From: Promethearchaeota archaeon
GTDB lineage: Archaea; Asgardarchaeota; Lokiarchaeia; Sigyniarchaeales; SOKP01
Assembly: GCA_016840085.1 (NCBI GenBank)
Contig: JAEOTA010000009.1
Coordinates: 1-42,701 of the forward strand
Reading direction: 5' to 3'
DNA length: 42,701 nucleotides
Below the pieces are notes generated by a model, which searched no databases, was not told the origin of the DNA, and saw nothing but the letters and a program-made list of their open reading frames with translations. Positions 3,202-15,568 of this stretch are shown here, piece after piece (positions within the stretch are counted from its first letter, which is position 1; every line of letters begins with the position of its first letter). The position numbers and the translations under genes were made by a program.

Positions 3202-5610
3202 TTATTCTTTATTTGAATTATAATTTCTGAATATACCTCCAATTAACTGCCCAGTGCTTACTCCAGCATCACCAGATGGAATTAGTTCATGTTCTAAGAA
3301 TTGATATCCAGATTGATTAATTTGATCTTTTATCGATTTAGAAAAAGAATAATTATAAGCAACTCCTCCTGTTAAACCAATTTTATTTATGTTATGCTTT
3401 TTTGCAAGTTTAATCGCAATATCAGCAAATGATCTCCCTATCTCAATTTGGAATTTAGCTGCAATATCCTCTTTTTTATATTTACCATTTTCCAATAGCT
3501 CTATTATATCTGCTATTAATTCTGACGTTTTTAATTGATATTTTCCATTCTTTTTAATAGATTTAATTTCTAATGGTACATTATCTGCGTTCCCTCTTGA
3601 AGCCATCCCTTCAAGTCGCATAGCAGGTTCACCTCTATAGGTCTTAATTCTTGAAGCCTCTAATAAATATGAAACTGAATCAAAGATTCTACCGGTTGAA
3701 CTAGTCAGAGGGATATTCTGAGATGGAAAGTGGTTTTTTCCCTGCTCAAATTGGGATATTAAAATCTCTAATTCTGTGTTTTTATATTCAAGATCAAGAT
3801 ATAATTTTAATTTTTCAAATTCTTTTTTAGATTCTTCCAATTCTAAAGCATTTAAAATAATAGACGCTACCATACGAGCAGGATATTTTGTACAACGATC
3901 TCCTCCTATCATAGGTTGATATTCTAAGTGAGCTAAACGTTCATAATCATAATATGAAGATAATAATATTTCACCTCCCCAAATATTACCATCATCACCA
4001 TACCCAACCCCATCTGAAGTTATACAAATGATTTTTTCATCGATATCTACCTTATTTTCAGCCATCAATGCTAAAGCATGCGCATAATGATGTTGTATCT
4101 TGTAAATATTGCATTCGAACTGATTACTAAGTTCTCTGGCTAATTTAGATGTAATAAATTCTGGATGAGCATCGCAAGCAATGAATTTTATTTCAGAATC
4201 TGTAACTTGAAGGAGAGACTTCATATGAAATAAGGCATCCTTTAGAAATTGATATGTTTCAAGATGAGAAACATTCCCAATATGTTGTGTAGGGAAAATC
4301 CTATTTCTTCTTAAAATAGCTCCAGTTGTTGATAATAATGGGCCTGTAGCAATTGCACCAGGAATATCTACTTTAAAAGGTAAAGGTATATACTCTGGCA
4401 CATAACCTCTAGAGCGCCTAATTAGTTTCGGTTTATTATTATGAATTCTTAAAACACTATCATCAGCTCTTTGATAAATCGATCTGTTATGAAGAAGAAA
4501 AATGTCTGCAAGTTCTGTTAACTGCTCAAATATTTCCACATTATCAATAGCCATAGGAATATAAGACTTGTTCCCGCTGGTATAAACTAATGGTTTCTCT
4601 CCTATATAATCAAATAATAAATAATGTATCCCTGAATAGGGGAGCATTATGCCAACATTATTTAATCCCGGAGCTACTTGCTTACTAATTATTGAATGAT
4701 CATTTGAATTATTTCTTTCTAAGAGAACTATTGGCCTTCGAAATGAATTGAGAATCTCTCTTTCTTTCTTAGAGACTTTTAGGGTATTTTCAATAATTTT
4801 CAAATTTGGTACCATTACAGCAAATGGTTTATATTTTCTTTCACCTTTTCTTTCACGTAATTTGCTGATAACATCGTCATTGTTAGCTAAACAAATTAAA
4901 TGAACTCCTCCTATACCTTTAACTGCAGCTATGGCCCCCTTATTTATTCTTTTAGCTGTTTCAATTAATATTTCATCTATTGAATTATCTTTAATGATTT
5001 CTCGCTGGTTGTCATAAAGTTTATAATGCGGTCCACACACTTTACACACAAATGTTTGAGCGTGAAATCGTCTATTATTAAAATCTGAAAACTCCTGGAT
5101 GCAAGATTCAGGTTCAGCCTGTTTGCAAAAAGGAAACTCAACCATAGTACTGCGTTCTCTATCGTAAGGCAGATCAATTACCGTAGTGAATCTAGGGCCA
5201 CACACGGCACACGCGATAAAAGGATATTTATAGTACTTCGGAATATCTGGGTTTCTCATATCAGCTAAGCATTTATCACAAATGGCAATATCTGGAGGTA
5301 GTGTTAAACTAATGCCTCTGCCTTGCTCACTTTTTTCTATTTTTAAATTATCATATATTATATCTGTGTAAATTGCTTTTTGTGTTATAGTCTCAATGAA
5401 AGATATTTCAGGCTTCTTTTCTTTAACTTGTTTAACAAATTTTTTAATGTTTGTATTATCTCCCTGTAACATTAATCGTACTCCAGCATTTCCACGATTT
5501 AAAATATATCCATTTAAATTGTTGTCTTTTGCTAAATTAAATAAGAAAGGTCTAAAGCCTACGCCCTGAACTATACCTGTAATATTGATTTCTATGGTTT
5601 TTATAGTCAT
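3202..5610 (-). CDS. hypF: Hydrogenase maturation carbamoyltransferase HypF
   Basis: GIVQGVGFRPF acylphosphatase domain, two Zn-finger CxxC pairs, LPYDRERSTM, RRSRGYVP, QHHYAHA, DGVGYGDDG, TSSTGRIFD. Confidence 0.96.
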   Translation of the reverse strand: MTIKTIEINITGIVQGVGFRPFLFNLAKDNNLNGYILNRGNAGVRLMLQGDNTNIKKFVKQVKEKKPEISFIETITQKAIYTDIIYDNLKIEKSEQGRGISLTLPPDIAICDKCLADMRNPDIPKYYKYPFIACAVCGPRFTTVIDLPYDRERSTMVEFPFCKQAEPESCIQEFSDFNNRRFHAQTFVCKVCGPHYKLYDNQREIIKDNSIDEILIETAKRINKGAIAAVKGIGGVHLICLANNDDVISKLRERKGERKYKPFAVMVPNLKIIENTLKVSKKEREILNSFRRPIVLLERNNSNDHSIISKQVAPGLNNVGIMLPYSGIHYLLFDYIGEKPLVYTSGNKSYIPMAIDNVEIFEQLTELADIFLLHNRSIYQRADDSVLRIHNNKPKLIRRSRGYVPEYIPLPFKVDIPGAIATGPLLSTTGAILRRNRIFPTQHIGNVSHLETYQFLKDALFHMKSLLQVTDSEIKFIACDAHPEFITSKLARELSNQFECNIYKIQHHYAHALALMAENKVDIDEKIICITSDGVGYGDDGNIWGGEILLSSYYDYERLAHLEYQPMIGGDRCTKYPARMVASIILNALELEESKKEFEKLKLYLDLEYKNTELEILISQFEQGKNHFPSQNIPLTSSTGRIFDSVSYLLEASRIKTYRGEPAMRLEGMASRGNADNVPLEIKSIKKNGKYQLKTSELIADIIELLENGKYKKEDIAAKFQIEIGRSFADIAIKLAKKHNINKIGLTGGVAYNYSFSKSIKDQINQSGYQFLEHELIPSGDAGVSTGQLIGGIFRNYNSNKE

Positions 5611-5692: not shown

Positions 5693-7308
5693 TTAATCTC
5701 GTTTCTTAAAAATTCTTCTTATCAAGACTATTAATATGACACCAAATAGACCACTTACAAGATAAATATTAAATCCTGGAATTCCCTTTTTACCGCAATC
5801 ATTATTCTCTATAATATTACCAATGCAATTTTCATCTACTTCAATGCATTTCCTATTACCGCGTAATATATTACCAATAATTCGATTATAATCACTAGCC
5901 TCAAGGTCAATTCCTGTTGCATCATTATTTCTAATGGTATTATCTGTAATATTGTTATAATCACTGCCGGTCAGTGATATTCCCTCATCACCGTTATGAT
6001 CTACTATATTATTAGTAACATTATTATGATCACAAGAAGTCAAACTTATTCCAGTTTCACCGTTATTATCTACTATATTTTCTGAAACGTCACAATAGCT
6101 AGTGGCAGCTAATGTTATTCCACACCAATCTTCGACATGCCCATTCGAAGATACATTATTATTTGAAATAAGAATTTTTGTAGAATCATCTACAGATATC
6201 CCAGAATAGTTGTTAAAACAAATGATATTGTCTTTTATTTCGCTATTATGAGTATCAAGTACCCATAAACCTCTATAATTATACATGACTGTATTGTTAC
6301 TAATTGTAATATAATAATTAGGAATATCAAGTCCAGGCGCCATACGAGATGACATAATTCCTTCATAATGATTACCTATGATTATATTTTCAGATATTAG
6401 AGTATTATTACATTTAGCATTTCTAATTCCAATTCCGGCATTACTTTTTACTAGATTATCTGAAATAGTTGTAGAATTGCAGAATTCTAAATGAATTCCA
6501 TCAAAATCAAAATCATCAAACTCAGACTCTACAAGATTTTTACAATTTTGTTCTATTGAGTTTTCGGAAAGTAATATATCAAAGCAATATGCTAAATGAA
6601 TCCCATGATCGTCATTATTATTAATAGTATTTCCAATAATAGTATAATTCCAGCAATATTTCAGATTTATTCCAGACCCATAATTATTATTAAAAGTATT
6701 ATCAGAAATAATATTATCAGAAATAACAGTAAAAGAAAAAGAAATTCCAATTTCACTATATAAACCATACTGAGCATTATTATTTGCAGTATTTCCAGTA
6801 ACAGTACAATTCTGAGAATGATATAGAAAAATTCCAGTTTTACAATTAGAAAAGTCGTTATCGATTAATGTTCCGTTATTTGCCCAATATAACCAAATCC
6901 CATATATATCTTTATTTCGATCAGAAGTAAAAACTGTACAGTTTTTTATGACAAAATAATCATCGTAAAACCAATAAAAATTCCAGATTGGAACTCAGAA
7001 TCAGGAAGTGGATCTAAAACGGGGGCATTAGTAGCATTGATAATGACATTTTCAATAGTATAAGGATTAGAAAATGAACCATCACCACTACACCAATCTT
7101 CCGCGACCGTTGCAGACCAATTATCAACTATATGAATATATGATAATTTATGCACTGCACTAGTGGAGGGCATTTTTACCTCATTATTGGTTTCTGGAGT
7201 TAGTGGAGTTATTCGGTGGCTATAAAAGGATATACCTATTATAACAGGGATTAAAACCCATATTCCCCAAAGAATTATTACTACATTTTGTTTACTTATG
7301 GATTTCAT
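5693..7308 (-). pseudogene. Surface right-handed beta-helix (NosD/CASH-like) protein split by a single 1-nt frameshift near 6965; N-terminal hydrophobic segment and C-terminal IPGF-TM-basic sorting tail
   Basis: ORFs 6946-7308 and 5693-6355 are one gene. The frame starting at 6964 (DDYFVIKNCTVFTSD...) is open into the 6355 ORF and is full of N-rich GIxL repeats. It ends KKGIPGFNIYLVSGLFGVILIVLIRRIFKKRD. Confidence 0.85.
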
Positions 7309-7442: not shown

Positions 7443-8543
7443 TTATTCATGATATTTATAATAAATACTGCAAGTCCCTTCCATAGAAACCATACATGGT
7501 CCAATGGGATTTAGAGGTGTGCATTCCTTTCTAAAAAGCTTGCATTCAAAAGGATATAATTTTCCAACCATTACTAGATGACAAGAACAGCCAGGAGGGA
7601 TATCTTGAGAGTTTTCAATTTGAATATCGAATTTTTTATCCGCATCGAATTCTTGATATCTTTCCCTTATGGCTAATCCTCCCTCAGATATTCTTCCTAT
7701 CCCTCTCCATGGTGACGAGACAGGTTTAAAAACTTTATCAATTATATTTTGAGCCACTTTATTTCCTTCAGGCTTTACAACTCGAGAATATTCATTTAAT
7801 GTATCATATTTTTTATCTCTCACTTGCTTTAAAAGCATTAAGAGGGATAATAAAACATCATTAGGTTCAAATCCTGATATAACGTTGGGTATTCTATAAC
7901 CTTGTGAAAAAATTTCATATGGTTTTAGTCCAATAATCGTAGAAACATGACCTGGAGAAATAAAACCGTCTATATTTAATAGTGATTGACTCATTAAAAG
8001 TTCTAAGGCCGCTGGAATTAATTTATGAGCACATATTACTGAAAAATTTGAGGGAGGATCAGATTTAAGTTCAAAACCAGTTAAAGGAGCAGTAGTTTCA
8101 AATCCTATAGCAAAAAATATGACTTCTTTATTAGGATTTTTTCTAGCAATCTTAACAGCATCATTCGGTCCATAAACAATACGAACATCAGCACCTTTAG
8201 CTTTGAGTTCAGCTAAAGAAATATTTGTAGAAGGAACCCGTATCATATCTCCGAATGTTGTTATAATTGTATCTTTCCTTTTTCCAAGCTCGATTGTTTT
8301 GTCAATATCAGCAGCAGGACATATACATACAGGACATCCAGGACCAGATAAGATTTCTATTTCTTTAGGTAAAAGAGTTCTTAATCCATACTTAGAAATT
8401 GTATGTTCATGGGTTCCGCAAACGTGCATAAATTTAACTGGTCTGTTAATCTCCTTAACAATCGAATTTATTGCTTTTATGAGTTTTTTTGTAAATTCTT
8501 TACTTCTTAAAATTTTTATTTCAGGGAGGTCCATCTTGAGCAA
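7443..8543 (-). CDS. hypD: Hydrogenase maturation protein HypD
   Basis: MHVCGTHE, SGPGCPVC, GFETTAP, PGHVS and C-terminal GPCMVSMEGTC. Start may be ATG at 8534. Confidence 0.96.
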   Translation of the reverse strand: MLKMDLPEIKILRSKEFTKKLIKAINSIVKEINRPVKFMHVCGTHEHTISKYGLRTLLPKEIEILSGPGCPVCICPAADIDKTIELGKRKDTIITTFGDMIRVPSTNISLAELKAKGADVRIVYGPNDAVKIARKNPNKEVIFFAIGFETTAPLTGFELKSDPPSNFSVICAHKLIPAALELLMSQSLLNIDGFISPGHVSTIIGLKPYEIFSQGYRIPNVISGFEPNDVLLSLLMLLKQVRDKKYDTLNEYSRVVKPEGNKVAQNIIDKVFKPVSSPWRGIGRISEGGLAIRERYQEFDADKKFDIQIENSQDIPPGCSCHLVMVGKLYPFECKLFRKECTPLNPIGPCMVSMEGTCSIYYKYHE

Positions 8544-8676: not shown

Positions 8677-8976
8677 ATGAGTAATAATCGAAGATTAACA
8701 GAAGATATTCGTAAAAAAGTTATTGAATTCCTTAAAAAACATGGAGCAAAAAAAATATCCATTTTTGGATCCTATATTAGAGGGGATGCAACACCAGAGA
8801 GTGATTTGGATGTTATCGTTGAATTTAATGAACCAAAAGGACTTATTAAATTTGTCAGCATAGAAAATGAATTATCAGAAATTTTAGGAATAAAAGTAGA
8901 TTTATTAACTGAGAAAGCTATAAGCACTTATCTTATTAACGATATTAAAAAAGAAGCAATTGTGATATATGGATGA
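8677..8976 (+). CDS. Minimal nucleotidyltransferase (MNT) antitoxin
   Basis: IFGSYIRGDATPESDLDVIV and LGIKVDLLT; 99 aa; ATGA overlap with the HEPN gene. Confidence 0.92.
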   Translation: MSNNRRLTEDIRKKVIEFLKKHGAKKISIFGSYIRGDATPESDLDVIVEFNEPKGLIKFVSIENELSEILGIKVDLLTEKAISTYLINDIKKEAIVIYG

Positions 8977-9323
8977 AAAAAGATAATCAGGTTTATTTAG
9001 AACATATTCTAGATGCGATAAACCAGATCAAAACATATATCAAAGATGTGGATTATAAAAGCTTTACTAATTCTCGACTTATTCAAGATGCCGTTATTCG
9101 AGAACTCGAAATAGTTGGTGAAGCAACTAAAAATCTGTCTGAAGAAGTTAGGAAAAAATATCCCAATATCCCATGGAAAGATATTGCGGGGATGCGAGAA
9201 AAATTAATCCATGGTTATATGGGTGTGAATTTAGAAGATGTCTGGAAAACAGCTAAAGAAGAAATATCAGATTTAGAAAAACAGCTTAAAAATTTGCTTA
9301 AGGTATTTAAATCTAAGAATTAA
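8973..9323 (+). CDS. HEPN (DUF86) ribonuclease toxin
   Basis: QDAVIRELEIVGEA, IPWKDIAGMREKLIHGY (Rx4H motif); coupled to the MNT gene. Confidence 0.92.
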   Translation: MKKDNQVYLEHILDAINQIKTYIKDVDYKSFTNSRLIQDAVIRELEIVGEATKNLSEEVRKKYPNIPWKDIAGMREKLIHGYMGVNLEDVWKTAKEEISDLEKQLKNLLKVFKSKN

Positions 9324-10372
9324 CATATTCTAGGAATAGGTTCACCTAAAGGCATATCAACAATCCGAGTACCTCCGACTATTGTCTTTAAAAGCACTCG
9401 CTTTGGATTGTCTGCTTTAACTTCACCAATAATTTGGGCATCCTTCCCTATATTTGTTTTTCTAATTTTATTTAATATAATTTCAGCTTTATTTGGATCT
9501 ACTGCTAAGAGAGCTCTCCCTTCACACGCAATATTATAAGGATCCAGACCTAACATATCACATATCGCACTAACTTCCTTTTTAACTGGGACTTTTTCTT
9601 CGTCAATCCAAATACTCACATATGATTTTTTTGCCCAATCATTTAAAGCAGCAGCAATGCCTCCACGTGTCGGATCTTTCATAGCATGAATATAATTACT
9701 TTTAATTTCAGATTTAACTTCTTCATATACTTCAAGTAAAAGTGAAATATCTGATTTTAAGTCTGTAGAAATGTTTAATCCTTCTCGAGAAGCCATCAGA
9801 GCGGTACCATGATCGCCAATACTACCAGTTATAATAATTTGATCTCCTACTTTTAGATTGCTATCTAAAATAGTTATGTTTTTATCCTTTATTCCAATAC
9901 CAGTAGTCGCTATAACTATTTCATTCAATGTTCCTCGAGGCATTACTTTTGTATCTCCCGCAATTATTGCAATATTCGCTTTTTTTGCCATATTATTCAT
10001 CGAACCTATTATTTTTTCTAATTTATTAAATCCAAAACCCTCTTCAATGATTATCATAGATGTTAAAGCTAATGGTTCAGCGCCCATCATTAAAAGATCA
10101 TTAACAGTTCCACAAATGCTTAAAATACCTAAATCTCCTCCAGGAAAAAAAAGAGGATAAATTGTATGACCGTCTGCAGTAATAACGATTTCTTTATCAT
10201 AATTATTTAAGGGAATAGTAGCTCCATCGTCTAACTCTTTAACACCAATACCGTTATTAACATTTTTAAAGGGGATGTTCTTTGTAATAAAGTCAATTAA
10301 TTCTTCCTGTAAAATTCCACCAGCCCCATGAGCCAAACGGATAACCTTAGAGCTCTCTTTTTTTTCACTCAT
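9320..10372 (-). CDS. hypE: Hydrogenase maturation protein HypE
   Basis: LAHGAGG, PLFFPGGDLG, GDTKV, MKDPTRGG and C-terminal PRIC. Start moved to ATG 10372 (MSEKK) because the upstream 33 codons are low-complexity. Confidence 0.95.
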   Translation of the reverse strand: MSEKKESSKVIRLAHGAGGILQEELIDFITKNIPFKNVNNGIGVKELDDGATIPLNNYDKEIVITADGHTIYPLFFPGGDLGILSICGTVNDLLMMGAEPLALTSMIIIEEGFGFNKLEKIIGSMNNMAKKANIAIIAGDTKVMPRGTLNEIVIATTGIGIKDKNITILDSNLKVGDQIIITGSIGDHGTALMASREGLNISTDLKSDISLLLEVYEEVKSEIKSNYIHAMKDPTRGGIAAALNDWAKKSYVSIWIDEEKVPVKKEVSAICDMLGLDPYNIACEGRALLAVDPNKAEIILNKIRKTNIGKDAQIIGEVKADNPKRVLLKTIVGGTRIVDMPLGEPIPRIC

Positions 10373-10618
10373 GATTGTAAAATAGAAACAAAAATTAAAA
10401 GAATTTAGGTTATAAAAGCAATGTTTAAAAATTTTAACGTTTAAAATTAATAATTCAAGAATTTTAAGCAAAATAGATTAAAATAAGAATCAAATTGATT
10501 TATTATAAAAATATAAAATTACCAAAAATGATACTTGTTTTTATTTAGAGTTAATGCTTCAATAATATAGAATATAAAAAAAAAGAAATTTTTTTCTTGA
10601 TTTGTTTTAACTTTTTGA

Positions 10619-11239: not shown

Positions 11240-12562
11240 ATGGCAGTAAAAGTAGCATTCTGGCAAAATTCTGATTGCTGGGGTTGCCATCAATCCTTAT
11301 TAAATGCACATTTAGGGTTGTTGCCAATACTTCCAGCGTTAGATATCGTCTATTGGCCAGCTGTGGTCGATTTTAAATTTGATTCATTGAAGAATAGAAA
11401 TAACGGTGAAATTTTAGTAGGCTTTATCGAAGGGACAATTCGTACAAAAGAAGATGAAGAAGGCGTCAAATTAATGAGACAAAAATGTGCACTAATTATA
11501 GCCTTTGGAAGCTGTGCTTGCTATGGAAATGTTCATGGTTTAGCTAATCAATGGAATAAAGATGATTTGGTCAAAAGGAAATTTTCTGAAGTTGAAAGCA
11601 TAGCAGATGGAAGTGGTGGTGAACCTTCTCAACATATGCCTGGTTTCTCTGAAAAAGTAGTGAATGTTGATGATATTATACCCGTTGATGCCTATATCGC
11701 AGGATGTCCTCCAAAACCAGAGCAAATAATTAGTGCTGTAGCTTTCTTATTAGGGCAAAAGCCATTTCCAATGAATGATTTAGCATTCTGTAATGACTGC
11801 ACTATAAAGGATAATTGCTTATTAGATGCTGGAAAGTTATGTTTTGGTTCAATTACCAGTATTGGTTGTAGTTTAAAATGCACAAGTCAAGGTAATCCTT
11901 GTGTAGGATGTTTTGGACCAGCAAAAACAGTAGATTCTAGAGCGGATAAGTTAAACGATATGACAAAGAATCTCGAAACCCTAAGATCTGGAAACAAGAA
12001 AAATTTATACGAATTTTTATCATTATTCTTGAATGTCCCATTAATGGCAGGATTTGATCTTGCGGGAGATATTCTGAAACAGGTTAAAAAGACAGGAAGT
12101 CAAAAAACTCCATTAGCAAACCTTCCTCCTGATACAGAACAAATTGCTAATAATATTATGCGATACTTAAGGGATCATCGAGAGTTTCATGAAGTTTCAA
12201 ATGTATGTGATACGTGCGATAGAATTATTGGAAGCAAATCTACTATGATAAGAGTCAAGAGAGATTATGAAGGTCTTCCTAACTTAGAGGATTGTTTAAT
12301 AGAGCAAGGTTATATCTGTATGGGCCCTATTACCAGAGCTGGTTGTGGTGGTTTATGCATTAAGGTAAATGCTCCATGTACAGGATGTTATGGTCACACC
12401 AAATGGGGTGTCGACCAAGCAGAACGATTTGCTGATGAAGTAACAAAAGGCTTTAATGTAAATATTTCAAAAGAAGAATTACTTGGACAAGTAAAAGATC
12501 ATATTGGAACTTTTGAAAAATTTACTTTAGCTTCAAATCGAACATATAAAGGAGGGGTATAG
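11240..12562 (+). CDS. vhuG: F420-non-reducing [NiFe] hydrogenase small subunit (VhuG/MvhG) with a duplicated C-terminal Fe-S module
   Basis: CWGC, AFGSCACYG, IAGCPP, and two copies of a CxxC...CL..G.LC.G.IT..GC...C.....PC.GC[FY]G module. Confidence 0.9.
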   Translation: MAVKVAFWQNSDCWGCHQSLLNAHLGLLPILPALDIVYWPAVVDFKFDSLKNRNNGEILVGFIEGTIRTKEDEEGVKLMRQKCALIIAFGSCACYGNVHGLANQWNKDDLVKRKFSEVESIADGSGGEPSQHMPGFSEKVVNVDDIIPVDAYIAGCPPKPEQIISAVAFLLGQKPFPMNDLAFCNDCTIKDNCLLDAGKLCFGSITSIGCSLKCTSQGNPCVGCFGPAKTVDSRADKLNDMTKNLETLRSGNKKNLYEFLSLFLNVPLMAGFDLAGDILKQVKKTGSQKTPLANLPPDTEQIANNIMRYLRDHREFHEVSNVCDTCDRIIGSKSTMIRVKRDYEGLPNLEDCLIEQGYICMGPITRAGCGGLCIKVNAPCTGCYGHTKWGVDQAERFADEVTKGFNVNISKEELLGQVKDHIGTFEKFTLASNRTYKGGV

Positions 12563-12566
12563 AAAA

Positions 12567-13871
12567 ATGGTTAAAGAAATAGAAGTAGAACCTATTACTC
12601 GATTAGAAGGGCATGGAGGATTGAGGCTTGTTTTAGGTGATGATGGAAAAGTTCAAGATGTTCAATTTAATATTACTTCTACAAGATTTTTTGAGAAATT
12701 TGTAGAAGGCAGATATTGTGAACATATTCCTCGTATTACACCACGGATTTGTGGTATTTGTCCGATACCTCATCATCTAACACCCACAAAAGCTGTTGAA
12801 GATGCGTGGGGCGTTGAAATTCCTCCTGCTGCATATAAGTTGCGACAACTATTACAAAACGCAAAACAATATTCTTCACATCTATTACATTTTTATGCAT
12901 TAGCAGCGCCAGATTTCTTGTTAGGCCCTTTTGCAGATCCCGCATTAAGAAACGTAGTACATGTAATTAATAAAATGCCTGATGTCGGAGCAATGGCTCT
13001 TAAAATGATGGATTTTGGCCAAAAACTATGTGCAGCAATAGGAGGTAAGTCAGTTCATCCTATCAGCGCAATAGTAGGAGGTATGAAAAAACCTCTAGAT
13101 GAAGATGTCCGTGATAAATTTTTAAAAGAGATTGATGACCAAATTGAATTTACTAAAAAAACAGTTGATATCGGATTAAAAGTAGTAGAAGATTATTGGG
13201 ATGTCGTTGCAAATGTAGGAGTAGTTCCTACGTACTATGTTGGTATGACTAAAAATGGCGTTCATGATATTTATGATGGGGATATTCGTATAGTAACCCC
13301 TGATGGAAAAAAGATAGATTATACTCCTCAAAAGTATTTGGATGCTTTAGGAGAACATATTCCAGAACATTCATACGCAACTCATATGTATTATAAGCCC
13401 GCAGGATATCCAGAAGGGATATATCGAGCAAATACATTGGCAATGATCAATGCTGCAGATAAAATGGCAACACCATTGGCGGATGAGGCTTTAAAAGCCT
13501 TTAGAGCCAAAATAGGACCAATTTCACATCATACATTTGCATATCATTGGGCTAGATTAATTGAAACAGTTGAATCAATTGAAGTTATCGCAACATTACT
13601 TAAAGACCCTGATATTGTAAATCCAGATTGTAAAACTTTGGATGTAGAACCAAGAGAGGGTGATGGTGTTGGTATTACAGAAGCACCGAGAGGATTATTG
13701 CTCTACCATATCTGGTCAGATGCAGAAGGAATCTGTAAAAAAGCTAATCTCTTAGTCGCAACAAATCATAATATCGCAGGTATTGAAAAGTCTTTGATGC
13801 ATGTTGCAAAACAAGTATTTGAAGATAAGGCATTAGATGGTCTAAAATTACCAGACCCTTGGATCAAATAA
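12567..13871 (+). CDS. vhuA: F420-non-reducing hydrogenase large subunit, split type lacking the C-terminal Ni-binding motif
   Basis: EPITRLEGHG, RFFEKFVEGR, L1 motif RICGICP, EAPRGLL. Ends LPDPWIK without DPCxxCxxH. Confidence 0.93.
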   Translation: MVKEIEVEPITRLEGHGGLRLVLGDDGKVQDVQFNITSTRFFEKFVEGRYCEHIPRITPRICGICPIPHHLTPTKAVEDAWGVEIPPAAYKLRQLLQNAKQYSSHLLHFYALAAPDFLLGPFADPALRNVVHVINKMPDVGAMALKMMDFGQKLCAAIGGKSVHPISAIVGGMKKPLDEDVRDKFLKEIDDQIEFTKKTVDIGLKVVEDYWDVVANVGVVPTYYVGMTKNGVHDIYDGDIRIVTPDGKKIDYTPQKYLDALGEHIPEHSYATHMYYKPAGYPEGIYRANTLAMINAADKMATPLADEALKAFRAKIGPISHHTFAYHWARLIETVESIEVIATLLKDPDIVNPDCKTLDVEPREGDGVGITEAPRGLLLYHIWSDAEGICKKANLLVATNHNIAGIEKSLMHVAKQVFEDKALDGLKLPDPWIK

Positions 13872-13906
13872 ATATATTGAAATTAAAGGAAAAAGTGAAT
13901 AAAAAA

Positions 13907-14056
13907 ATGAGTGATGTACCTGAAGGTGTGGTAAATCTCTTAGAAATGGTAGTTCGCTGTTTTGATTGCTGACTATCGTGTGCTGCCCACATCACAGTAG
14001 TTGATGAGGAAGGCACTGAGATTTACTCTCGAAAATTGAACGTAGGCTTAGGTTGA
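13907..14056 (+). CDS. vhuU: Selenoprotein VhuU, the separately encoded C-terminal peptide of the large subunit; Sec at TGA 13970-13972
   Basis: MSDVPEGVVNLLEMVVRCFDC-U-LSCAAH-ITVVDEEGTEIYSRKLNVGLG*. The TGA sits at the first Cys position of the L2 motif that vhuA lacks, and a SECIS-like hairpin follows. Confidence 0.93.
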
Positions 14057-14112
14057 TTGTTCAATAAAAATATTAGATTGAACATGACTGCCCACGCAAG
14101 GGTTAAAGCCTA
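14043..14112 (+). promoter_or_regulatory. Eukaryote-like SECIS element of vhuU
   Basis: Helix I TAGGCTT(14043-49)/AAGCCTA(14106-12). Core TGAT(14054-57)/TGAC(14085-88) gives tandem G.A/A.G pairs. Helix II TGTTCAAT(14058-65)/ATTGAACA(14077-84) with apical loop starting AAAAA. Confidence 0.8.
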
Positions 14113-14163
14113 TAAATTTAAAAAACAAAGATGAAAAAATACAAAAAAAAGGAGAAATGAGAA

Positions 14164-14670
14164 ATGGAAATAAATTTTGAGTTTAGAAAACTGGTAATGG
14201 ACCATCATATTGAGCCTGATTTAATAAAATATTGTTATCAATGCAGTCGATGTGCCGATAATTGTCCTGTAACAGCAGTAACAGAGGATTTCTATGGTAC
14301 GACAGGATATAATCCTAGAACAAACATTCTTAGGGCTCTTTTAGGGTATAAAAATTTACTTCTTGAACAAGATGATTTGGTAATATGGGGTTGTACTGTA
14401 TGTGATACATGTGATGAAGTGTGCCCTCAGAATATTGAGCTTACAGAGATCTTTACATTCTTGAAAAATCAAAGTATTGATTTAGGGAAGGGTCCAGATT
14501 TCATTTATTCGCAAGCACAAGCGGTTTTCGACAGTGCTAAAGCAATTCCTTCACAACCGGCAATTGAAAGAAGGAGAGATCAGCTAGGTTTACCAAAAGT
14601 AGTAGCACCAGATGTAGAGGAAATACAAACATTACTAAAAAATATTGGAGCAAATAAAAAATTAAAATAA
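14164..14670 (+). CDS. hdrC: Heterodisulfide reductase subunit C
   Basis: Two ferredoxin motifs, CYQCSRCADNCP and WGCTVCDTCDEVCP; directly upstream of hdrB. Confidence 0.92.
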   Translation: MEINFEFRKLVMDHHIEPDLIKYCYQCSRCADNCPVTAVTEDFYGTTGYNPRTNILRALLGYKNLLLEQDDLVIWGCTVCDTCDEVCPQNIELTEIFTFLKNQSIDLGKGPDFIYSQAQAVFDSAKAIPSQPAIERRRDQLGLPKVVAPDVEEIQTLLKNIGANKKLK

Positions 14671-14689: not shown

Positions 14690-15568
14690 ATGACCGAATA
14701 TAAAATGTTTGAAGGATGTACAATTGGTAATAGAATTCCCTTTATTGAAGCTGCTTCAAGAAAAGTATTTGATAAACTTGGTGTAGAAACATCTGAAGCA
14801 CCATTTTCATGTTGTCCAGATCCAACTGGGGTAAAAAGTTTTGATAATGATGCTTGGTTAGTAATTGGAGCTCGAAATCTTTGTCTAGCTGAAGCAGAGG
14901 GGAAGAATATTGTATCTTTATGTAATGGTTGTGCTAATACTTTAAGAGGCGTGAAACATCAATTAGAGCATAATAACTTGATAAAAGAAAAGGTTAATTC
15001 AGAGCTGGCAAAAATCGGAAAGGAATTTAAAGGTTCTATAGATGTGAAACATTTTGTTGATGTACTAAAAGATGAAGTGGGTATGGATAAGATCAAAGGG
15101 GCTATTACTAAACCATTAAATAGTATAAAAGTAGCTTGTCATCCAGGATGCCATTACATGCGTCCAGCAGAATGGATGGAATCTGATGATCCTATGAGAC
15201 CTGAAAATCTAAAAAAACTGGTTGCTGCAACTGGTGCTACAGTTGTTGATTATGATGAATTAGCTCTTTGTTGTGGCTCAGCTGTCACAAACGCTTATGA
15301 AGAATATGGTTTGGCAAATTTAAAGAAGAAGATGGATAGTATTAAAAAAACTGGTGCGGATGTTATTGTTGTAAATTGTCCTTCATGTTTCCAGCAATTT
15401 GATACTATGCAACGTGACCTAGGTAAGAAATTCGATACTGAATATGGCATACCAGTGTTATATTTAACAGAGTTGTATGCTTTAGCTATGGGATTTAATC
15501 CTGATGAATTAGGATTAAAGTTCCACAGAGTTCGATTATCAGGAATTCTAGAAAAGCTTGGAATATAG
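14690..15568 (+). CDS. hdrB: Heterodisulfide reductase subunit B
   Basis: Two CCG domains: FEGC..SCCPDP..LCNGC and HPGCH..CCGS..CPSCFQQFD; C-terminal GLKFHRV. Confidence 0.95.
   Translation: MTEYKMFEGCTIGNRIPFIEAASRKVFDKLGVETSEAPFSCCPDPTGVKSFDNDAWLVIGARNLCLAEAEGKNIVSLCNGCANTLRGVKHQLEHNNLIKEKVNSELAKIGKEFKGSIDVKHFVDVLKDEVGMDKIKGAITKPLNSIKVACHPGCHYMRPAEWMESDDPMRPENLKKLVAATGATVVDYDELALCCGSAVTNAYEEYGLANLKKKMDSIKKTGADVIVVNCPSCFQQFDTMQRDLGKKFDTEYGIPVLYLTELYALAMGFNPDELGLKFHRVRLSGILEKLGI

Follow-up and report, generated by a model that had tools for sequence, protein, structure and literature searches.

The short open reading frame at positions 13907-14056 on the plus strand of the window, the 42,701-nucleotide stretch of Lokiarchaeia DNA under analysis, is very probably vhuU, the gene for a small selenocysteine-bearing subunit of a split group-3c (Vhu/Mvh-type) hydrogenase: VhuA and VhuU together would build the metal site of this [NiFeSe] enzyme, an in-frame UGA would be recoded as selenocysteine (Sec) under the direction of a SECIS element, and Cys18 and Cys21 would be ordinary residues encoded by TGY and typical of the lineage. 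The gene belongs to the Asgard VhuU family already in the literature and has its orthologue in the VhuA/VhuU pair of methanococci. A 2016 publication described this gene family with its SECIS and the overlap between SECIS and stop codon, and a survey across Asgard archaea followed in 2024; a detail that may be unreported is the clade-wide cysteine in place of proline beside the Sec, which is not peculiar to this window. Gene finders overlook vhuU because one of its codons is a UGA decoded as Sec, and without these 49 codons the only Vhu-type hydrogenase of the genome, an enzyme thought to serve syntrophic hydrogen metabolism in cultured Asgard archaea, would appear broken. A first-pass annotation of this DNA had proposed that a VhuU selenoprotein makes up the missing part of a split [NiFeSe] hydrogenase, and the proposal is borne out by the conservation of the TGA, the SECIS, the Sec machinery of the genome, and a VhuA without the C-terminal motif.

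From comparison with the family, the Ni-Fe site would have four ligands, two from VhuA (C62 and C65) and two from VhuU, with Sec22 at the place of the terminal nickel ligand and Cys25 at the bridging place, and His28 would mark the point at which an endopeptidase removes the 21-residue tail. At the UGA of 13970-72, EFSec and Sec-tRNA(Sec) would insert Sec under the control of a eukaryote-like SECIS that lies 84 nt further downstream. The second UGA (14054-56) is expected to act as a stop, not as Sec, because it lies inside the SECIS core; in the minimal-distance model, a UGA within the SECIS signal is read as a stop (PMC4989117). Cys21 most likely tunes the surroundings of the Sec ligand and would be neither a ligand nor a recoding site, and Cys18 would occupy a freely variable helix position.

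The vhuU reading frame and the split large subunit

Translated with TGA as U, positions 13907-14056 give 49 codons and a stop, with the motif R17-C18-F19-D20-C21-U22-L-S-C25-A-A-H28; the peptide as it was first read (EMVVRCFDC-TGA-LSCAAH and a 21-amino acid tail) is matched exactly. The codon for R17 lies at 13955-57, followed by those for Cys18 (TGT, a variable position) at 13958-60 and Cys21 (TGC, which stands for the canonical proline right before Sec) at 13967-69. The TGA for U22, at the position of the terminal nickel ligand, is at 13970-72, and the codons for C25 and H28 are at 13979-81 and 13988-90, respectively. The 21-residue tail, presumably removed on maturation, is encoded at 13991-14053 and is followed by the stop codon TGA at 14054-56, all on the plus strand.

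When C is substituted for U in the query, the best NCBIfam match of the peptide is VhuU (NF041786) at 52.5 bits against a cut-off of 70, with residues 5-42 aligned to positions 4-41 of the 45 in the profile; the equivalog cut-offs for VhuU, VhuA, and VhuG are tuned on methanococci, and all three genes of the window score below them. In the alignment to the solved VhuU chain 9sfi_M (27 residues), the X that denotes Sec in that chain falls on the TGA. The peptide also aligns to the C-termini of fused large subunits of solved structure, and in large subunits of known structure the residue opposite the TGA is the first Cys of DPCxxCxxH. Both vhuU and vhuA are present as a single copy in the genome.

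The large-subunit gene vhuA (12567-13871, plus strand, 434 aa) matches Pfam NiFeSe_Hases in its N-terminal part only. Its translation has the N-terminal nickel motif RxCGxC (C62, C65), and no C-terminal DxCxxCxxH was found in the 434 residues; the ORF ends at 13871, which confirms the earlier statement that vhuA lacks the C-terminal metal-binding motif. The arrangement of a vhuA without the ligand motif and then a separate vhuU ORF (13871 to 13907) is the same in relatives. Over its full length VhuA can be aligned to 9sfi_g, a split VhuA chain of solved structure (418 aa), at 429 bits, a better match than the fused MvhA chains 5odc_F and 9sw2_F, and its best NCBIfam match is VhuA (NF041785) at 477 bits (cut-off 800).

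The window corresponds to contig C41 in a metagenome-assembled genome of 4.68 Mb, with 89 contigs and 29.5% GC, and the hydrogenase-Hdr gene set within it consists of vhuG, vhuA, vhuU, and hdrC-like and hdrB-like genes. The vhuG-like small subunit (11240-12562, plus strand, 440 aa, Pfam Oxidored_q6) has VhuG (NF045875) as its best NCBIfam match at 235 bits (cut-off 450), over residues 3-239 only; the last 200 residues form an additional, Cys-rich portion outside the match to the 286-position VhuG profile. The hdrC-like (14164-14670) and hdrB-like (14690-15568) genes, both on the plus strand, have Pfam Fer4/CCG domains and HdrC and HdrB, respectively, as best NCBIfam matches below the cut-offs. 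Neither hdrA nor vhuD is present in the window. Twelve genes with MvhD/FlpD domains are found elsewhere in the genome, and four of these have two in-frame TGAs (on contigs C82, C24, C44, and C9). Three maturation genes on the minus strand of the window match their NCBIfam equivalogs above cut-off, namely hypF (3202-5610, 765 bits), hypD (7443-8543, 482 bits), and hypE (9320-10471, 393 bits), and they are interspersed with unrelated genes. Among the latter are a gene for a Loki-CTERM protein (5693-6355), which is in keeping with descent from Lokiarchaeia, and, between hypD and hypE, a MntA/HepT-like toxin-antitoxin pair (8677-9323) for which both scores are below the cut-offs. A gene for a hydrogenase maturation endopeptidase is present in the genome (58 bits, cut-off 47).

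VhuU selenoproteins are known in Lokiarchaeota (Mariotti et al. 2016, PMC4989117), as the first-pass annotation stated, in Asgard archaea (Huang et al. 2024, PMC11227280), and in Atabeyarchaeia and Freyarchaeia (PMC11291895). Nothing essential differs between the published Asgard VhuU and the present one: each has about 50 residues and a single Sec, is encoded after vhuA, and comes with a lokiSECIS, a core UGA that is the stop codon (as in Loki VhuU.1), and a tRNA-Sec with a 31-nt T-loop intron, although the 5' SECIS core here is UUGA, not AUGA. The likeness to Methanococcales VhuA and VhuU (9sfi, 9t1s; NF041785, NF041786) extends to the split large subunit, Sec at the first C-terminal ligand, the U-x-x-C-x-x-H pattern, and a homologous tail. 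However, the methanococcal motif is R-A-Y-D-P-U where the present one is R-C-F-D-C-U, and the methanococcal SECIS is of the GAA_A archaeal type whereas this one is Loki-type. Gene order also differs, being vhuDGAUB in M. maripaludis (PMC11097638) and vhuG-A-U-hdrC-B without vhuD here, and the scores are below the equivalog cut-offs. A literature search found no paper on the 9sfi structure. The fused Cys-type MvhA (5odc, 9sw2) and other group-3 large subunits (7t2r, 3zfs) have the same fold and ligand pattern, but in each the chain is undivided, with Cys where Sec stands here and with Pro before the first ligand.

Codon 22 and the cysteines around it

For 13850-14150, the comparison covered contigs of four metagenome runs on marine sediments, drawn from three studies. 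At 13970-72, no other letters are reported in the contigs of the three studies, at summed depths of about 500-1000; reads with TGC or TGT at this codon, which would have spoken against a Sec codon, have no counterpart in these contigs. Within the vhuU ORF, 17 of 19 variable sites are third codon positions, among them all nine on the 3' side of the TGA, and synonymous variation flanks the invariant TGA on both sides.

The same pattern is seen at greater distance. A vhuU peptide with exactly one in-frame TGA is present in 53 of 61 related genomes, and the pattern R-x-[FY]-D-x-TGA-x-x-C-x-x-H has matches in 210 of 400 Asgard genomes, with two control matches among these. The TGA at codon 22 is retained in about 200 relatives, and L-S-C-[AS]-A-H on its 3' side is preserved through many synonymous codons. 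One conserved TGA, together with residues kept by means of synonymous codons, therefore points to selection at the protein level on a frame that runs across the TGA. In one relative (L034, G012:C49), a TAA six codons past the His shortens the tail, and the SECIS is still in place.

Codon 22 is replaced in two Cys paralogues, by TGT in G039 and by TGC in the fused gene of G053. These Cys-type paralogues are extra genes that read D-C-C (L064/L087, G039:C117; L067/L086, G053:C211); one is split and one is fused into a 493-aa large subunit, and no SECIS was found behind either. They look like Vhc-type back-ups. No D-C-C Cys-type paralogue was found in the genome to which the window belongs.

The canonical D-P before the first ligand is D-C in this VhuU, and the motif was initially described as unusual. 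Within the lineage it is not: a phylum-wide motif count gave 143 + 59 = 202 true matches among those listed, after removal of eight chance matches, and 198 of these 202 have D-C-U (GAY-TGY-TGA), with both Cys codons in use. The Lokiarchaeia motif is R-[C/I/N/S/G]-[FY]-D-[C, rarely P/N/F]-U; in other classes the motif is R-C-Y-D-C-U (f9 and f31), R-A-Y-D-C-U (f20), or R-[SA]-Y-D-C-U (f21), and the consensus for Asgard VhuU across several classes is R-C-[FY]-D-C-U. For comparison with the wider family, an exhaustive search with the fused Asgard paralogue was used to collect the 150 nearest representatives, of which 84 retain the C-terminal motif. In these 84 non-Asgard-type representatives, the residue before the first ligand is Pro in 82, Leu in two, and Cys in none, and position 18 is Cys in 12. 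All solved chains among the alignments listed are D-P-C or D-P-U. A word-based protein search with the fused D-C-C paralogue returned one cluster only, and a literature search for the D-C-U motif strings found no mention, including in those Asgard VhuU papers that are searchable. Across the sequences compared, D-C-U is a true clade signature of Asgard VhuU, and as a clade variant it gives no ground for exclusion.

The replacement of Pro by Cys21 is a clade-specific change in the first shell of a hydrogenase active site, and Cys21 could bear on the oxygen tolerance or the maturation of the enzyme. Cys21 is replaced in seven VhuU genes, by P (G046, G042), N (G056), or F (G231, G039, G045, G043), and only one vhuU was found in G046, G042, G056, G231, G045, and G043. 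Since it has been replaced in lineages without a second vhuU, Cys21 is selected but dispensable. No VhuA cysteine that tracks Cys21 was found in 39 sequences from several classes.

The redox centre of mammalian thioredoxin reductase is Gly-Cys-Sec-Gly, and the vicinal Cys-Sec dipeptide is shared with the present VhuU, but the likeness is a chemical analogy only; the protein is unrelated and its Sec is not a metal ligand. By such analogy, Cys21 and Sec22 might form a vicinal redox pair, in which a reversible selenenylsulfide guards the Sec from over-oxidation or holds it before nickel is inserted. The prevalence of Cys21 in the listed Asgard matches by way of both synonymous codons, its retention in the D-C-C paralogues, and its displacement of an otherwise near-invariant Pro would all suit a redox pair, as would the Se-S bonded states known in oxidised Desulfovibrio [NiFeSe] hydrogenase. 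However, the seven VhuU genes with P, N, or F in this place come mostly from genomes with a single vhuU, and adjacent side chains generally face opposite ways, so the pair is rather unlikely. If it were true, the Cys-Sec pair would be a built-in switch for protection or maturation that is absent from the [NiFeSe] enzymes of methanogens and bacteria.

A further suggestion of the first-pass annotation, that codons 18 and 21 are evolutionary Sec/Cys exchange positions, has as its sole basis the Cys/Sec replacements seen at codon 22, and it is wholly improbable given that both codons are TGY in every relative with Cys there and never TGA in about 200 VhuU matches from at least nine families, and that position 18 may be C, A, S, N, I, or G in relatives while position 21 alternates with P, N, and F. 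The alternation of TGA with TGY that was to be looked for at codons 18, 21, and 22 is thus found at codon 22 (TGA versus TGT/TGC) but not at the other two.

The preferred reading is still that Cys21 tunes the environment of the Sec ligand and that position 18 is free to vary. A pairing of Cys18 with Cys390 of VhuA, as a possible inter-subunit disulfide, was considered and rejected. The two cysteines track each other in 12/12 and 7/8 cases in 20 Lokiarchaeia sequences, but the link is broken in 39 sequences, which include R-C with I/L390 (f9, f31) and R-S/A with C390 (f21); with this wider sampling, the apparent link is a phylogenetic artefact.

Some database large subunits among P0009, P0033, P0020, P0042, and P0101 stop exactly before the first ligand. 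Those that end in ...RAYDP probably represent fused Sec enzymes for which gene callers stopped at the TGA. Two database large subunits end in ...RCFGW or ...RCFNW, which may reflect additional variation at the position just before Sec.

The SECIS element and the Sec machinery

A Loki-type SECIS (eukaryote-like, type I) was located at 14053-14087 on the plus strand by sequence inspection and script. It consists of a 5' core U-UGA (14053-56), the UGA of which is the vhuU stop codon, an upper stem with strands of 9 nt (14057-65 with 14077-85), an 11-nt loop AAAAAUAUUAG (14066-76), and a 3' core GA (14086-87). This build agrees with the lokiSECIS, which has been described as a 9-bp stem capped by an A-rich loop of 11 nt with AG at its end (Mariotti et al. 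2016, PMC4989117), and in Loki VhuU.1 the core UGA likewise doubles as the stop codon (PMC4989117). The first position of the 5' core, U here instead of the usual A, is A, C, G, or U in relatives. The first stem pair is U.U, as it is in two relatives (L035 and L036), and the distance from the Sec codon to the SECIS core is 84 nt in most relatives.

The SECIS is part of a larger fold. A lower helix (14042-49 with 14106-13), with its 5' strand within the last vhuU codons, and a GC side hairpin (CCC/GGG, 14090-14103) form a three-way junction with the SECIS over 14042-14113, which has a minimum free energy of -21.4 kcal/mol and a z-score of -3.74. The CCC/GGG side hairpin is nearly invariant in 35 relatives. 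Covariation was counted pair by pair across 35 aligned homologous regions, with 500 shuffles and slid versions as controls. Compensatory changes on both sides are seen in every one of the nine pairs of the upper stem and in four of the eight pairs of the lower helix, for example GUAGGCUU/AAGCCUAC versus GUUGGUUU/AAACCAAC in the lower helix. The number of cells changed on both sides is 64, compared with 22 in shuffles; none of the 500 shuffles is as high, and the slid controls fall sharply. The frhA-type Asgard SECIS elements have a lower stem of the type [U/C]GG_C[C/U][A/G] (Huang et al. 2024, PMC11227280).

A SECIS of the same build lies behind three of the four vhuD-type genes with two in-frame TGAs in this genome, and the loop of one of these Sec-containing vhuD genes is identical to that of vhuU. 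A naive genome-wide SECIS pattern gave 75 matches and is too noisy at 29.5% GC; it was applied only beside known Sec genes. At the gathering threshold, Rfam gave no match within the window. An SRE-like hairpin directly 3' of the Sec codon was also considered and rejected: the local fold in the window has a z-score of -1.1, and in 46 Lokiarchaeia sequences 76.6% of cells are paired against 74.3% in shuffles and the slid controls yield equally many compensatory cells.

The genome contains the machinery that Sec insertion would need, as had been proposed for checking. A search of the genome found genes for SepSecS (391 bits), a PSTK-like protein (138 bits, best match), and an EFSec-like protein (236 bits), as well as two tandem selD genes (G000:C78:5990-8158), each with an in-frame TGA, and a tRNA-Sec. 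The two selD genes and the four MvhD/FlpD-domain genes with two TGAs imply a sizeable selenoproteome. The tRNA-Sec has the anticodon UCA and a 31-nt T-loop insert and is located next to the SepSecS gene, some 5 kb away from the gene for EFSec; its position and insert agree with the published Loki tRNA-Sec, which has a 31-nt T-loop intron and lies near the EFSec gene.

That the TGA of vhuU instead terminates translation, or is an error of assembly or the lesion of a pseudogene, leaving a truncated or dead hydrogenase, has practically no probability left: gene finders do end there and no Rfam family flags the SECIS, but the TGA is invariant in the contigs from three studies, LSC[AS]AH is conserved downstream with synonymous change only, the SECIS covaries, the Sec machinery of the genome is complete, and this is the sole vhuA/vhuU copy in a genome that has hypFDE beside it.

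The tRNA-Sec was not detected by ARAGORN or by a whole-genome Rfam search, which it escaped because of its inserts, and came to light only in a search around the EFSec gene. The locus (G000:C32:24374-24526; L071 16375-16527) has an Rfam score of only 25.9 bits. A perfect 9-bp acceptor partner for the 3' strand, GGCCCUUGA, lies 27 nt upstream of the start of the Rfam model, and a 7-bp D-stem candidate (GAGAUCA/UGGUCUC) encloses about 20 nt. These features suggest one or two further small inserts beyond the published 31-nt T-loop intron.
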